A stretch of 64,000 bases of DNA from an uncultured Candidatus Babeliaceae bacterium (lineage in GTDB: Bacteria; Babelota; Babeliae; Babelales; Babelaceae): the NCBI GenBank assembly GCA_963704655.1, contig OY969927.1, positions 192,001 to 256,000 on the forward strand. Direction: 5' to 3'. Both the position numbers and the translations under genes were made by a program. A model generated the notes under the pieces. The model was given only the letters and a program-made list of their open reading frames with translations. It made no database searches and was not told the origin of the DNA. Shown here in pieces: positions 13,730 through 39,545 of this stretch. Within the stretch, counting starts at the first letter, position 1, and every line of letters starts with the position of its first letter.

Positions 13730-13779
13730 TCCATCTTCGCCAAGGCTGGTGCGAAACGCACTATTTTGGCGGACAGGCC
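13730..13779. repeat. Family B palindrome with a nested family C hairpin (13746-13767)
   Basis: TCCATCTTCGCCAAGG[CTGGTGCGAAACGCACTATTTT]GGCGGACAGGCC. Confidence 0.7.
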
Positions 13780-13782
13780 GTT

Positions 13783-14697
13783 TTATAATAAAATCTTTTT
13801 GTGCTCATTCGATTCAGGCATATAAAAGTTGCCACTATGCTGCTGAATCAGCTGCATAATGTCTTCTTTGTATATGGGGTCTTGTAAGCCAAGATCGACT
13901 ACCGTTTTGAGCCAACCGCGAGGCGTGCCGACATCATAACGGGTGCCTTCGATTTTATAGGCAAAGACTTTTTCATTATGCTGAAGCATGTGTGAAATGG
14001 CGTCGGTTAATTGTAATTCTTGCGTAGCATAGCCGCTAATCTCTTCAAGTGATGCAAATATTTTATGTGAAACAACGTATCTGCCAACAATGGCAAGGTT
14101 AGATGGTGCATCTTTAATAGAGGGTTTTTCGATTAAAGAATCGACATGGAATAAGTTAGGGGTTATCTGTTTTTTTATGCGCACAATGCCGTAGTTACTT
14201 ACTTGGTCGTGCGGGACTTCTTGTACTGCAATAACGGTAGATTTTTCTTGGCGCGCTATACGAATAAGTTGCTCTAATGCGGGGCGCTTATTAATGATAA
14301 TATCATCAGGTAATGCTATACCAAAATATTCTTTTCCTAAAAAGGGCTTTGCCATTAATACCGCGTGGCCAAGGCCGAGTGGTTCAGATTGGCGAATATA
14401 AGAAAAATGCGCTGATTTAATAATTTGATTAATTCCTTTAAGATCGGCAAGTTTATTTTTATCTTGTAAAAAAGTATCGAGTTCAGGATTAGAATCAAAG
14501 TAGTTGCCAATCAGCTCTTTGCTGCGATTGGTGATGAATAAAACATGCTCTATGCCAGAATTTATCGCCTCTTCAACGCTATAATGAATAGCAGGTTTAC
14601 CAAGTATAGGGAGCATCTCTTTGGGTATTGTCTTTGTATAGGGTAAAAAGCGTGTACCTAATCCTGCTGCTGGAATTACTACCTTAGTGATTTCCAT
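13783..14697 (-). CDS. galU: UTP--glucose-1-phosphate uridylyltransferase
   Basis: VIPAAGLGTRFLPYTKTIPKEMLP, RQSEPLGLGHAV and LQLTDAI. Confidence 0.95.
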   Translation of the reverse strand: MEITKVVIPAAGLGTRFLPYTKTIPKEMLPILGKPAIHYSVEEAINSGIEHVLFITNRSKELIGNYFDSNPELDTFLQDKNKLADLKGINQIIKSAHFSYIRQSEPLGLGHAVLMAKPFLGKEYFGIALPDDIIINKRPALEQLIRIARQEKSTVIAVQEVPHDQVSNYGIVRIKKQITPNLFHVDSLIEKPSIKDAPSNLAIVGRYVVSHKIFASLEEISGYATQELQLTDAISHMLQHNEKVFAYKIEGTRYDVGTPRGWLKTVVDLGLQDPIYKEDIMQLIQQHSGNFYMPESNEHKKILL

Positions 14698-14746
14698 ATA
14701 CTTGCCCTTTTTGGTGCACTTAAAGCGCACTATTGTGTGAAGAAAA

Positions 14747-15790
14747 TTAAAACTGTTTTAAAAACTCAATTTTTCCACTATGAAAAAGTCGGATATCATT
14801 AATGCCATACAGCAGCATTGCTAGTCGTTCAATACCAATTCCCCATGCACAACCTGAATATACACTCGGATCGATGCCGCATGCTTTCAGTGTTGCTGGG
14901 TGCACTAACCCTGAACCGCCCATTTCAATCCATTGTGTCTTTTTACATAATGCGCAACCAGTCTTGCAGAAAATGCAGGAAATATCAACTTCAAGTCCCG
15001 GTTCAACAAAGGGAAAATAACTTGGTCGAAGACGAATTGAAAGATCATTTTTTTCAAATAACTTACGCATAAAGACTTTAAGTAATGAACAAAGATGCGT
15101 AAGAGATATGTTTTTATCAATTAAAAGCCCTTCGCATTGCATGAACATAAAGTCATGCGTAGCATCAGTTGCCTCGTGCCTAAAAACGCGCCCTGGGGTG
15201 AAAACTGCTAGCGGAGGTTGCTGGGTCTTCATGGTATGTATCTGAACAGAAGATGTATGTGTGCGGAGTAAAAGTTCTGGCGTTGTCAGCCAAAAGGTGT
15301 CTTGCATATCACGTGCAGGGTGATCAGCAGGAATATTAAGCGCTTCAAAATTATACCATTCAGTTTCAACTTCTGGCCCTTGTGCATAGGCAAAGCCCAT
15401 GGAAGTAAAGATATCTTCAATATGCTCGATAATATGCGTATACGGATGCAGCGAGCCGCTTGGTTTTTCTAATGTGCTTGGCACATGCGCTGTGACATCA
15501 AAATGCTTTTGTTTATCAAGTTCTTGGGCAAGTGCTTGTGCTAAAAGTTTTTGCTGATGCGCATATAATTCTTGGGTAATAATTTGTTGGAGTTCTTGTA
15601 CTTGGGGACCAAATGCGCGCTTTTCTTCAAGCGGCATGGTTTTAAGCTGAGCCATCAGCTCATTAATGTGTCCGTTTCTGCCTAAATAGGCAACACGAAT
15701 TGCATCAAGTTGTTGATCTGTAGATGCTTGTGCAAGCTCTTGGCGCCACGTTTCTAATATTTGTAAAAGAGATGTATCTATAATTTTCAT
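14747..15790 (-). CDS. pheS: Phenylalanine--tRNA ligase alpha subunit
   Basis: HPARDMQDTF, LRTHTS, RPSYFPFVEP and GIGIERLAML. Confidence 0.97.
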   Translation of the reverse strand: MKIIDTSLLQILETWRQELAQASTDQQLDAIRVAYLGRNGHINELMAQLKTMPLEEKRAFGPQVQELQQIITQELYAHQQKLLAQALAQELDKQKHFDVTAHVPSTLEKPSGSLHPYTHIIEHIEDIFTSMGFAYAQGPEVETEWYNFEALNIPADHPARDMQDTFWLTTPELLLRTHTSSVQIHTMKTQQPPLAVFTPGRVFRHEATDATHDFMFMQCEGLLIDKNISLTHLCSLLKVFMRKLFEKNDLSIRLRPSYFPFVEPGLEVDISCIFCKTGCALCKKTQWIEMGGSGLVHPATLKACGIDPSVYSGCAWGIGIERLAMLLYGINDIRLFHSGKIEFLKQF

Positions 15791-15920
15791 GGTGTATACT
15801 AAGGTTAGAATAGTTTATTGTAGCTTAGCAGACAAAAAATTCTGTAGCAAACTACTTATAAAAAGTTGACAAAACTGCTCAAAAAGTTACTATTAATCTA
15901 ACTTTCTTTAAAATATCAAT

Positions 15921-15995
15921 GCCGGGGTAGCTCAGTGGTAGAGCGAGAGCCTGAAGAGCTCTGCGTCGATGGTTCAATTCCGTCTCCCGGCACCA
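15921..15995 (+). tRNA. tRNA-Phe(GAA)
   Basis: Cloverleaf GCCGGGG/CCCGGC, anticodon loop CTGAAGA, GGTTCAATTCC, encoded CCA. Confidence 0.95.
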
Positions 15996-16030
15996 TCTTG
16001 CGCTCCTTCGGAGCTACAGATGGCAGGCCA
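15993..16030. repeat. Family B palindrome sharing the tRNA CCA
   Basis: CCATCT-TGCGCTCCTTCGGAGCTAC-AGATGG-CAGGCCA. Confidence 0.75.
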
Positions 16031-16208
16031 CAGGCCATCACTTCCCTTTCTCTAACAATTATTTTTTGCAGTTCTAATATTCAAAAGCTATTAAGCGTTT
16101 CTTTAAGTTTTTATTTTCATTTTTTAAAACACTTTCAATTCTTGTTGTGCTATAGTATGGTTGAAAACGATGAGTAGTGATAATGCTGATGGAGAAAAGG
16201 TTTGAGTA

Positions 16209-38245: not shown

Positions 38246-38412
38246 AGGGAATTATTATGGATCATCTACCATTGTACCTATAAAAAACCATTTAAACTTC
38301 AGCTTTTTCATATTTTTTAAATCTATGCCACAGATGAACGTAACGAGCTTAAGGTATTCGGTATGGCTGCGAGCAGCTGACGGATAGCGTAGATTGTGCT
38401 ACTATCTATAGA

Positions 38413-38445
38413 GAAGTTGCGACAATAGCCCGATAGAGTGCACCA
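38413..38445 (+). repeat. Cassette-boundary repeat R3 (shorter match)
   Basis: GAAGTTGCGACAATAGCCCGATAGAGTGCACCA, followed by a family B palindrome to 38475. Confidence 0.75.
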
Positions 38446-38542
38446 TACTTCGCCAAGGCTTCGTATGGCGAGCCAGCCTTTTTACGGAATGACAGGCAAA
38501 TCATAGTTCTTTGTTTTTTTGAAAATTCTGAGGAAAATAATT

Positions 38543-38917
38543 ATGAAACAATTTTTTCTTTTTCTTGCGATTATGCCAATTGCATTGCTAGCCATGGAGC
38601 CAAATAATCATGCCTCTCTCGGACTAGTTGAGCATTTTGCTATAATGCTCAGTGCAGGTAGTCAATACACCGAGCGCACATTGGATAATTTAAAATCAAA
38701 ACGCTTGGAAAGTCTCGCTGAGATGAAACAAAAGCAAGCAATACCAAAAATTATAAATCAATTAGAAACATGTGCTGAAAATGATAAGCTAAAAAGCCGG
38801 GTGCAATGCCAAGTAGTTTATGATTGGTTCATTTCAGAGCTTCGAGCCCAAGGATATTTTACAAATGTACCTGTGGGTGGGGAATTTACTCAAAAAGTAA
38901 TGGAAGCCATTGAATAA
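38543..38917 (+). CDS. Secreted hypothetical protein (cassette 5)
   Basis: GAGG RBS; MKQFFLFLAIMPIALLA-MEP signal peptide. Confidence 0.7.
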   Translation: MKQFFLFLAIMPIALLAMEPNNHASLGLVEHFAIMLSAGSQYTERTLDNLKSKRLESLAEMKQKQAIPKIINQLETCAENDKLKSRVQCQVVYDWFISELRAQGYFTNVPVGGEFTQKVMEAIE

Positions 38918-39057
38918 TTTGCTTAGATTTACTTACCCTTATTAATAAAAATTGGCGAGAGCCAGAGTACAAACTTCAAAAACGTGGGCTAAATTTAAAG
39001 TTTTTTTCAAGCTTGAATGGCTTTTAAGCCGTTAATAGAAATTGTTTAATTGCAAGT

Positions 39058-39129
39058 AAGTTGATATTATCATAAGTAAAGTTGCAAAATAGTGCGCGAG
39101 CGCACCAGATAACCCGATAGGGTGCACCA
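39058..39129 (+). repeat. Cassette-boundary repeat R4
   Basis: AAGTTGATATTATCATAAGTAAAGTTGC-AAAATAGTGCGCGAGCGCACC-AGATAACCCGATAGGGTGCACCA, followed by a family B-like hairpin to 39163. Confidence 0.85.
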
Positions 39130-39293
39130 GTCATTTCCTTTCAGGGGAAATGCCTGGCAGGCCAGTCTCTTTAATCAACAAATTTTATATAAAAAAATTG
39201 AAAATTACGCGCCCGTAGCTTCCACCTTCGTTAAAACTATGGTGGACAGGCAGTTGTTTAAAATAAAATCTTGAATACTATAGTATTTATAGC

Positions 39294-39370
39294 GCGCCCG
39301 TAGCTCAGTAGGATAGAGCGACAGTTTCCTAAACTGTAGGCCACTGGTTCGAGCCCTGCCAGGCGCACCA
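39294..39370 (+). pseudogene. Chimeric tRNA-Arg: CCT 5' part joined to the TCG 3' end
   Basis: First 59 nt match 41428-41370 (2 mismatches); 3' end GGTTCGAGCCCTGCCAGGCGCACCA is identical to tRNA-Arg(TCG); mispairs in the T and acceptor stems. Confidence 0.85.
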
Positions 39371-39545
39371 GGCTTCGCTCTTACGAGCTTCGCCTGGCAT
39401 GCCAATTTCTTAAATGACTTTTTTTGGAACAGTAAACTTGAGATAATTAAAGCGAAGACTGTCCGGCGTAGCTTCTTTTTTATATAAATTTTTTATGAAC
39501 TATTCAGCGAAGCCTGGACTAATTTAAAAAAATAAAGTGATTTCT

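Follow-up and report, generated by a model that had tools for sequence, protein, structure and literature searches.

Homing endonucleases of the GIY-YIG kind, which occur in phages and organelles, possess a separate DNA-binding domain and cut the double-stranded DNA of alleles that are free of the element. Single-domain GIY-YIG proteins are represented by the Ssn nucleases, which are associated with hairpin repeats designated NTS/SRM (Chenal et al. 2025, PMC11893778). The catalytic residues of SsnA are Y6, Y17, and E64; the enzyme binds its hairpin only as single-stranded DNA (ssDNA), with binding depending above all on the C that directly follows the palindrome, and it makes its cut a few nucleotides (nt) upstream (PMC11893778). 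The CGTC class of repetitive extragenic palindromes (REPs) bears short unpaired tails that mostly fit 'CCA', and the report that describes these repeats noted that no enzyme was known for them (Di Nocera et al. 2013, PMC3733652). Here, we describe a hairpin repeat and a GIY-YIG gene in a 64,000-nucleotide stretch of DNA, referred to below as the window, from an uncultured Candidatus Babeliaceae bacterium (assembly GCA_963704655.1, contig OY969927.1, positions 192,001 to 256,000 of the forward strand). The repeat, termed H1, is a CCA-anchored hairpin located behind most tRNA genes, and the CCA of the tRNA forms part of its stem. H1 is not a free-standing element; it is the left end of a GIY-YIG nuclease cassette of ~0.4-0.5 kb.

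The genome to which the window belongs (G000) is a single contig of 1,298,077 bp with 38% G+C, from an amoeba-associated member of the Babeliaceae (Dependentiae, Babeliales). ARAGORN identifies 39 tRNA genes and a transfer-messenger RNA (tmRNA) gene, and the CCA is encoded by 40 of the 40. The H1 consensus reads N-CCA-xxx-TNC-GC...GC-TNC-x'x'x'-TGG-C(N2-4)GCCA. An outer stem of 6 bp, the first three pairs of which are CCA:TGG, encloses a conserved 3x3 pyrimidine loop (TNC/TNC) and then a GC-closed inner hairpin that varies freely, ranges from 4 nt to more than 40 nt, and can enclose another repeat. On the 3' side, a near-invariant C directly follows TGG and is succeeded by a ..GCCA tail (C-N2-4-GCCA). 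H1 is thus a family of short, imperfect, extragenic palindromes with a conserved tag and tail and many copies (49 model matches in the genome).

H1 is present at 24 of the 40 tRNA and tmRNA genes (23 detected by a regular expression, 23 by a covariance model designated model R1, and 24 by the union of the two), 15 of these copies being of the CCATCT type by our own count. The register is exact: all 23 model R1 matches at tRNA/tmRNA genes begin at the discriminator base, and the hairpin starts at C74. At E<=1 the model has 49 matches in 2.6 Mb of searched strands, comprising 23 at tRNA/tmRNA CCA ends, five at NCCA ends that resemble tRNA 3' fragments, and 21 elsewhere. The 16 genes free of H1 include tRNAs directly before another tRNA or an rRNA, as well as Thr, Trp, Val-GAC, and Gly-GCC.

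When the stem positions xxx were left free in the search pattern, 17 of 21 genome matches were perfectly complementary, where 1/64 is expected for each; three others carried one mismatch, and one is likely a chance match. An alignment of 23 copies from 11 genomes has 94.7% paired cells (82.8% after shuffling) and a covariation of 0.291 (0.121 after shuffling), with 0 of 500 shuffles reaching either value, a test that is partly circular because the rows had been pre-selected for at most one mismatch. Among 98 matches drawn from many phyla and aligned by fitting to the model, the corresponding values are 97.0% against 79.6% and 0.307 against 0.089; double changes occur in 8 of the 11 pairs, and slid controls are 22-60% paired. 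The third outer pair is A-U in 61 copies of the cross-phylum alignment and C-G in 15, and H1-type copies located off tRNAs in this genome mostly have an outer stem of the form CCC/CCG...GGG; TGG therefore goes with CCA. An earlier note on the window had proposed that the stems co-vary and that copies prefer tRNA ends. Both proposals hold, the first in the excess of covariation over shuffles in the 23-copy and 98-copy alignments and in the 17 perfect free stems, the second genome-wide in the 24 occupied CCA ends. A chance origin of the pattern is rejected on the complementarity, the model matches at tRNA ends, and the comparison with shuffled trailers given below.

Several trailers elsewhere in the genome bear additional features. 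That of tRNA-Lys(TTT) (C1:1290930-1290956) has an unrelated, perfect 9-bp hairpin starting exactly at the CCA (CCAAAAACC TTTCT GGTTTTTGG). The 3' fragments of tRNA-Arg, tRNA-Gln, and tmRNA are duplicated, and tRNA or tmRNA fragments are duplicated together with their H1. The tRNA-Gln trailer and ~80 nt of flank recur 4 kb apart (C1:435743-435777 on the plus strand and 439943-439977 on the minus strand), and the inner 14 nt of H1 have the opposite orientation with respect to the common flank, flipped between the palindrome arms. At C1:971256-971492 (minus strand), the last 27 nt of the tmRNA gene and a second H1 are repeated 180 nt downstream of ssrA, preceded by a GGGCCTGTCCTCTGTAGCG module that is also found at window position 34733.

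The cassette runs from H1 and its tail through a spacer to a segment that repeats the H1 5' arm exactly but in inverted orientation (the distal arm), and then to an inverted hairpin H2 and the nuclease open reading frame (ORF). The one full cassette of the window lies behind tRNA-Arg(CCT), at 39368-39788, and consists of the following features.

39368..39404, plus strand: H1 on the CCA of tRNA-Arg(CCT) (39294-39370), CCAGGC TTC GCTC-TTAC-GAGC TTC GCCTGG CATGCCA; model R1 E 2.4e-11, folding
39452..39519, plus strand: distal arm and H2 region, GCGAAGACTG+TCCGGCGTAGC (39452-39475, GTC type) followed by GCGAAGCCTGG (39507-39517), which reverse-complements the H1 5' arm CCAGGCTTCGC exactly
39546..39788, plus strand: class 1 nuclease gene, SLX1-like GIY-YIG, single domain, 80 aa; PF01541, 64.7 bits

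The 5' arm and the distal arm form an exact inverted repeat of 10-11 nt (in one case, CAGGCTTCGC pairs with GCGAAGCCTG), and CCA, with or without xxx, recurs after the tail. Read on the opposite strand, H2 is an H-type hairpin, GTCCGxC TTC GC..GC TAC GxCGGAC followed by CAGGC, and in Babeliales lies 10-30 nt from the ORF. Both hairpins are upstream of the ORF, which is sometimes preceded by promoter-like hexamers in the spacer; a repeat is found downstream of it at only some loci (L047, L042). Three segments, namely the 5' arm, the 3' arm of H1, and the distal arm, covary in their variable letters, the middle loop base among them. A fourth, the tail CCA+xxx, often does so too: at 20 of 30 loci with a tail CCA, at least two of the three x letters are repeated, where ~16% is expected. 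This four-segment complementarity permits two alternative sets of pairings.

The class 1 protein matches the Pfam GIY-YIG domain at 4e-18 and no other Pfam domain; its best relative in the PDB is the nuclease domain of SLX1 (7cq2, E 2.8e-7), and its putative catalytic residues are Y5, Y17, and E63. The genome contains nine to ten GIY-YIG ORFs. The class 1 gene of the window starts 175 nt after tRNA-Arg(CCT), downstream of its H1, and a second class 1 copy starts ~20 nt after the H1 of tRNA-Glu, with a decayed third copy 1 kb further on. Full cassettes are therefore found at two tRNAs, Arg-CCT and Glu, and the other 22 occupied tRNA/tmRNA genes carry H1 alone. The class 2 GIY-YIG genes of this genome are flanked not by H1 but by another palindrome, the family A repeat, and constitute a second pairing of nuclease and hairpin.

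A profile of 16 class 1 proteins, searched against a collection of species-representative genomes, yielded at least 587 confirmed relatives. The best 80 of these are 53-75% identical and come from many phyla: Alphaproteobacteria including cultured Bradyrhizobium, Deltaproteobacteria, Verrucomicrobiota, Lentisphaerae, Bacteroidota, Ignavibacteria, Acidobacteriota, Saccharimonadales, Doudnabacteria, Omnitrophica, Marinimicrobia, Tectomicrobia, Binatia, and Dependentiae. At 59 of the best 80 loci the end of a tRNA (44) or tmRNA (15) on the same strand lies within 400 nt upstream of the ORF, the listed gaps being 76-298 nt; among the other 21, several have tRNA-like 3' ends that went undetected or are truncated where the contig stops. 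H1 is present on the CCA in 48 of the 59 linked loci, compared with 230 of 1180 shuffled trailers, and a distal complement with at most one mismatch in 10 in 41 of the 59, compared with 2 of 1180 shuffles. Model R1, built from Babeliales, detects H1 on the plus strand ahead of the ORF at 57 of the 80 loci (E<=4e-5, by our own count from the table), as well as weaker minus-strand matches between H1 and the ORF that correspond to H2. In collections of plasmids and phages, the class 1 nuclease gave no tblastn match at E<=1e-8.

The four complementary segments could be taken for an attenuator-like RNA switch that makes transcription from the tRNA promoter read through into the nuclease gene according to the state of the tRNA 3' end. 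With the H1 5' arm including CCA as segment 1, the H1 3' arm as 2, the tail CCA+xxx as 3, and the distal exact complement as 4, either 1:2 with 3:4 or 2:3 with 1:4 can pair, and the variable letters covary across phyla; the repetition of x letters in the tail would supply segment 3. The nuclease ORF begins 76-298 nt after the tRNA on the same strand, and in AT-rich hosts the 2:3 hairpin is followed by a T-run (in the window, GATGG-CAGG-CCATC and a T-rich stretch were flagged at copy R2, listed below). However, single mismatches in the distal arm are mostly not G-U compatible (4 of 14 are, by our own reading), GC-rich hosts have no T-run, some cassette spacers contain promoter-like hexamers, and solo H1 copies mostly lack segments 3 and 4. 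We regard such a switch as quite improbable.

Decay of the cassette can be followed in Bradyrhizobium. Thirty loci (L188-L217) were chosen through their conserved downstream flank, and tRNA-Ala(GGC) lies upstream in 29 of them. An intact-looking class 1 ORF was recognized by regular expression in 19 of the 30, in two variants each with its own H1 letters (CGC or GCC), and these variants occupy the one tRNA-Ala(GGC) site in different species. Inspection by eye of the 11 loci negative by the regular expression revealed four ORFs with stops or frameshifts (L191, L199, L205, L212), an intact variant-2 ORF that the expression had missed (L210), and a disrupted variant-2 ORF (L193). Two loci (L198, L216) retain H1, the distal arm, and H2 but no ORF, two (L201, L217) have the 5' arm fused to the distal arm, and L213 is a lone degenerate H1. 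Solo H1 copies can thus arise by decay of a cassette, and the two variants indicate that different cassette lineages replace each other at one tRNA. Bradyrhizobium genomes contain ~3-4 H1 copies each, so that a takeover of ~60% of tRNA trailers is a feature of Babeliales, and possibly also of the Candidate Phyla Radiation (CPR). The Bradyrhizobium tally (93 of 101 genomes) includes one genome flagged as unpublished; no other result rests on this tally.

Within Babeliales, the H1 pattern matches 104 of 151 genomes, compared with five matches in all for a reversed-pattern control; the pattern misses the shortest forms because it requires at least 6 nt between the loop motifs. A class 1 gene is found at E<1e-15 in 88 of the 151. 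Hairpin and gene occur together in 79 genomes, the hairpin alone in 25, the gene alone in nine, and neither in 38, a tabulation that is descriptive only because related genomes are not independent. At least 19 of the listed hairpin matches precede a listed class 1 match on the same strand by 100-250 nt. A tRNA-Arg is directly upstream in 10 of the best 12 GIY-YIG loci. Of 22 such loci from five genomes and four families, 10 directly follow a tRNA and one a tmRNA end, and at seven more, judged by eye, H1 sits on a short pseudo tRNA end. One such end, GGGACGCCA, is the 3' end of tRNA-Glu and follows a conserved AAGTTCTAAAATAGTC motif; the AAGTTCTAAAATAGTC module with this pseudo tRNA-Glu end stands ahead of nuclease cassettes in other genera of Babeliales (L061, L066, L071). 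Four modules of the window, R1 to R4, are of the same type.

The H1 copies of a genome resemble one another and differ from those of its relatives. The dominant stem type is TCT/AGA in G000, GTC in G001, a genome of the same genus, and ATC and GTC in G055, which belongs to another family. In G001, several tRNAs of which lie at contig ends, the strict pattern occurs at at least 12 of 31 tRNAs (~20 by eye). In G055, H1 is present at 17 of 33, with ten copies of the ATC/GAT type, six of GTC, and one of GTCAT. Nearly all orthologous tRNAs of G000 and G001 carry different H1 types, whereas their hairpin-free trailers (Gly-GCC, Val-GAC) are ~85-90% identical by eye. H1 is therefore homogenized within a genome and turned over quickly between genomes, the behavior of a repeat family rather than of independently conserved signals. 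The dominant solo type is the nuclease-linked type in G055 but not in G000 or G001. Copies can also be stacked in tandem, a second H1 beginning on the tail CCA of the first (G055 Phe, G055 Thr-CGT, G000 Tyr).

How the cassette is built, how its hairpins covary, turn over, and decay, and how it is linked to tRNA/tmRNA ends and the nuclease gene at the level of genome, order, and phylum are direct observations, and they suggest a reading to which we assign a probability of roughly 60%. In a cassette that lives directly behind tRNA and tmRNA genes, H1 and H2 would be the ssDNA recognition hairpins of the nuclease, much as the NTS/SRM hairpins serve Ssn nucleases and REPs serve the RAYT transposases, and solo H1 copies would be relics of decayed cassettes, gene-less copies, or both. 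The class 1 nuclease would read H1 on the sense strand and H2 on the opposite strand, in each case as ssDNA. Its landing site may be a stem followed by NCCA, whether the acceptor end of a tRNA or tmRNA or H1's own ...GCCA tail. A site of this kind would explain why the junction is exact, why tRNA and tmRNA are both preferred, why copies stack in tandem on the tail, and why tRNA 3' fragments are carried along, and it would account for a filled and empty pair of modules in the window (R4 and R1). Likeness among the copies of a genome might be maintained by nuclease-triggered recombination among tRNA trailers. Target-site duplication of CCAxxx was considered and rejected, since xxx is common to many different tRNAs of one genome and hence not derived from the target.

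The same reading would have consequences for RNA. H1 is co-transcribed with the tRNA, and the CCA of the precursor is thus predicted to lie in a helix that has to be opened before the tRNA can mature. Predicted folds of three pre-tRNAs have an intact acceptor stem, an unpaired discriminator base, and an H1 that starts at C74 with the CCA paired. RNase E/G, RNase PH, and PNPase are encoded in the genome, and no RNase Z was found there above the cut-off; with maturation by exonucleolytic trimming, a CCA helix should be a hindrance.

Several points weigh against the nuclease reading. Binding and cutting of H1 by the class 1 enzyme are proposed by analogy; the dominant solo type of G000, TCT, has no linked nuclease gene in that genome; and a class 1 gene at E<1e-15 is missing from 25 of the 104 genomes with the hairpin, a shortfall to which incomplete assemblies may contribute. 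A GIY-YIG hydrolase cannot join DNA by itself, so that any 'transposition' would depend on functions of the host. The comparisons yielded no clean empty site whose borders are defined, the Lys-Glu spacers of G000 and G001 being too diverged to align and none of the 29 tRNA-containing Bradyrhizobium loci being entirely free of hairpins. The strict sense orientation, exact register, and frequent T-runs behind the tail also fit a role at the RNA level, as does the presence of H1 at about half or more of the tRNA genes in three genomes.

These last points bear on the possibility that H1 is primarily a host RNA signal, a 3'-trailer hairpin for termination or for directed or delayed 3' maturation, and that the nuclease exploits a well-expressed safe site. 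H1 is always on the sense strand in one register, is frequent (24 of 40 genes in G000, 17 of 33 in G055, and 12 of 31 by the strict pattern or ~20 by eye in G001), and is conserved across the order, and the predicted precursor keeps the acceptor stem of the cloverleaf. T-rich runs often stand behind its tail. The same tRNAs, Thr-TGT, Thr-GGT, Trp, Val-GAC, Gly-GCC, and Ile, are free of H1 in all three genomes, some of these closely precede another tRNA gene or a likely protein-coding start, and the unrelated 9-bp hairpin of tRNA-Lys(TTT) likewise starts at the CCA. Additionally, given the three enzymes named above and the lack of an RNase Z match above the cut-off, a CCA helix would matter for exonucleolytic trimming. 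Signals maintained locus by locus should, however, drift separately, whereas H1 is homogenized within genomes and differs between orthologues of one genus. The same hairpin is also found inverted, as H2, and off any tRNA, and the ~3-4 copies per Bradyrhizobium genome argue that H1 is not a general tRNA requirement. Nor is the T-run adjacent to the stem. A tail of 7-9 nt separates the two, GC-rich hosts have H1 without a T-run, and terminator-like sites number 5 against 4.9 expected. On balance a host signal as the primary function of H1 is unlikely. A classical intrinsic terminator is rejected on the 7-9 nt tail and on the count of sites, which refers to window positions 33800-39900; within that interval, the scan picked up no more than the small tail hairpin of R2 and a part of R3.

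Apart from the cassette, the window contains the following hairpins, fragments, and repeats. Module R1 is distinct from covariance model R1, and E values refer to the model.

15993..16030, plus strand: solo H1 on the CCA of tRNA-Phe (15921-15995), CCATCT TGC GCTCC-TTCG-GAGC TAC AGATGG CAGGCCA; E 4.7e-11, folding
22346..22399, minus strand: degenerate H1 behind tRNA-Leu(TAG), its 5' half CCATCTTACGCCTATCCGGGCC interrupted by a nested H-type hairpin
within 22346..22399, minus strand: the nested hairpin of the tRNA-Leu(TAG) H1, TCCTAC TAC GCTAAAGC TTC GTAGGA CAGG
34097..34150, plus strand: solo H1 with a long inner hairpin on the CCA of tRNA-Arg(TCG) (34023-34099); E 1.0e-8, folding
34779..34825, plus strand: duplicated tRNA-Arg 3' fragment (T arm to CCA 34804-34806), 97% identical to the Arg(TCG) copy, its H1 5' half cut by a family A repeat
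36015..36083, plus strand: module R1, with promoter-like TTGATA-N18-CAAAAT, small hairpins, and the pseudo tRNA-Arg end GCGCACCA
37303..37370, plus strand: R2, H1 on a pseudo tRNA end (GTAGCACCA), imperfect and interrupted by an insertion, tail CAGGCCA; E 0.52
38443..38475, plus strand: R3, short H1 on a pseudo tRNA end, CCATAC TTC GCCAAGGC TTC GTATGG CGAGCCA; E 4.4e-11
39127..39164, plus strand: R4, GTCAT-type H1 on a pseudo tRNA end, CCAG TC ATTTCC..GGAAAT GC CTGG CAGGCCA; E 0.007
13730..13779, plus strand: H-type hairpin off CCA, TCCATC TTC GCCAAGGC..insert..GGCGGA CAGGCC
17865..17894, plus strand: inverted H-type hairpin off CCA, CTGTCCGCC ATA CC..GG CGA CGGCTGGA
33488..33516, plus strand: inverted H-type hairpin beside a family A repeat, GTCCGGC GAA GC CTTG GC GAA GACGGA
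33884..33923, plus strand: H-type hairpin directly adjoining a pseudo tRNA-Arg 5' half, outer stem CCC...GGG, tail CAGGCC; E 0.0018
39221..39251, plus strand: H-type hairpin off CCA, TCCACC TTC G..C TAT GGTGGA CAGGC
17754-17792, 23883-23918, 27460-27503, 29702-29749, 31153-31188, and 32967-32995: family A repeats

All six copies that the earlier note had placed on CCA ends (Phe, Arg(TCG), R2, R3, R4, and a supposed chimera that is tRNA-Arg(CCT)) are found there. The further copies that it listed need qualification. Those at 13730, 17863, 33487, 33885, 39221, and 39458 are real relatives within the hairpin superfamily but lie off CCA; the one at 34733 is a tRNA-Arg 3' fragment module whose CCA (34804) carries only the 5' half of H1; and the one at 22347, after tRNA-Leu(TAG), is a disrupted 5' half with a nested hairpin. 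Its description of a mini-element with a tRNA preference was right as to the conserved structure and the strong preference for tRNA/tmRNA CCA ends, but the hairpin is a module of the nuclease cassette and not autonomous.

Module R1 (36015-36083) has no H1 after its CCA and is the 'empty' counterpart of module R4 (39061-39165); the two are 88% identical over 98 nt upstream, and H1 follows the CCA only in R4. DNA contigs assembled from four runs are short, low-depth pieces with a few joints whose sides are 21-26 nt (for example, 34155->34732 and 37265->39107), too weak for deciding the presence or absence of cassettes. When the window was scanned with the covariance models of Rfam, only five tRNAs reached gathering scores.

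Family A repeats are common in the window (CCGCTCAyCCTGAGC...GTCGAAGG), and some contain nested H-type hairpins. One of them, together with the inverted H-type hairpin (33455-33525), lies inside an FtsJ/S4 (TlyA-like) ORF at 33021-33854; the ORF stays open for 277 aa, and the repeat is thus an in-frame intragenic insertion. Debris of tRNA-Arg is located at 33925-33975 and 34733-34825, comprising a 5' half whose anticodon loop holds an insertion and a module from the 3' half (GGCCTGTCCTCTGTAGCG...T arm...CCA). The GIY-YIG gene, a GNAT gene, and one unknown ORF lie between two copies of tRNA-Arg(CCT) in inverted orientation (39294-39370 and 41352-41428).

Hairpins behind tRNA genes could also be leftovers of att sites of integrase-mediated islands that insert into tRNA and tmRNA 3' ends. 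The 3' fragments of tRNA-Arg, tRNA-Gln, and tmRNA are duplicated beside accessory genes, and the window from ~34 to 41.5 kb is an accessory-gene island (ankyrin, zinc ribbon, unknowns) between two housekeeping genes. Yet a Pfam scan of 11 island ORFs (33021-42390) revealed no integrase or recombinase domain, duplications span as little as 180 nt, H1 stands behind 24 different tRNA/tmRNA genes, most of them without an island, and its stem covaries with the tRNA sequence rather than copying it. An origin from att sites is scarcely credible.

The nuclease reading can be extended to a synthesis that we consider doubtful as a whole. The cassette would be a ~450-bp mobile unit, spread over more than 10 phyla, for which structure and base pairing, instead of a DNA-binding protein domain, would mark the place to land; the CCA of the target would complete the hairpin, and any stem-NCCA would serve as a substrate. 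The gene-less hairpin would have taken over ~60% of Babeliales tRNA trailers and would now also shape the 3' maturation or termination of pre-tRNAs, with the four-segment complementarity switching between the two uses. Should the nuclease reading be right, the cassette may be among the smallest site-directed selfish units yet seen in bacteria. Like Ssn/NTS, but independently of it, it would combine a bare GIY-YIG domain with a cognate hairpin, here with a defined and universal address in the tRNA/tmRNA CCA end. The target hairpin of the enzyme would be supplied partly in trans by the substrate, which would be of interest for programmable ssDNA cutting. It would also explain the repeat-rich tRNA trailers of Dependentiae, and possibly of CPR bacteria, and it raises the question of how reduced genomes mature tRNAs whose CCA is predicted to be locked in a helix.

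The cassette resembles homing genes, which are tiny selfish nuclease genes beside conserved essential genes whose variants swap at one site; it differs from homing endonucleases in that the class 1 protein is a bare catalytic domain accompanied by hairpins. H1 merely resembles the attC site of integrons in layout, with an outer box, an unpaired spacer, an inner box, and a variable tip. REPs, among them the GTAG- and CGTC-tagged ones, bacterial interspersed mosaic elements (BIMEs), and REPIN-RAYT systems share with H1 the character of short extragenic palindrome families in head-to-head and tail-to-tail arrangement, with a gene for a single-strand-specific enzyme flanked by the repeats. The enzyme here is a GIY-YIG hydrolase, however, and the copies are on tRNA/tmRNA ends, whereas REPs are scattered between genes. 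A REP system driven by a RAYT is rejected, there being no Y1 transposase (PF01797) in the genome (0 found, three candidates scored), whereas the control search was positive in 6 of 14 genomes. With integrative islands that target tRNA/tmRNA genes and with the tRNA-gene-targeting retrotransposons of compact genomes (PMC5006619), the cassette shares the use of a tRNA as a safe, conserved landing site and the duplication of 3' fragments. It differs in having no integrase or reverse transcriptase in the H1 unit, a junction exactly after the CCA, and a size of ~0.45 kb, with a solo H1 of as little as 35 nt. In open-access papers and bioRxiv, we found no description of a GIY-YIG gene, or of a family of hairpins, that is anchored on the CCA ends of tRNA or tmRNA genes.

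The closest described systems are Ssn/NTS-SRM and REP/RAYT; the word tRNA is absent from the main text of the Ssn report (PMC11893778). A third type of hairpin in the genome has three copies that match the SRM motif (TGTCATCCC(G/C)GAC..GATC(C/G)GGGATC), at C1:358035, 423939, and 959079. The published motif has four matches in G000, none of them at H1, and Markov-simulated genomes have 0-4; on this mismatch of motifs, H1 as a published SRM is rejected. The class 1 protein lacks the C-terminal K-x-W-x-R-x-x-K-type motif, which is present in the class 2 genes of G000 and in a Bradyrhizobium GIY-YIG protein flanked by CGTC-type repeats, and its best solved relative is SLX1. Both Ssn and the class 1 cassette involve of a single-domain GIY-YIG protein of ~80-94 aa with catalytic Tyr, Tyr, and Glu at matching positions (Y5, Y17, and E63 in class 1). 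In both, oriented hairpin repeats accompany the gene and also occur without it, and the critical C after the SsnA palindrome has a counterpart in the near-invariant C after the TGG of H1. What sets H1 apart is that it is welded to the CCA of tRNA and tmRNA and has a conserved 3x3 internal loop.

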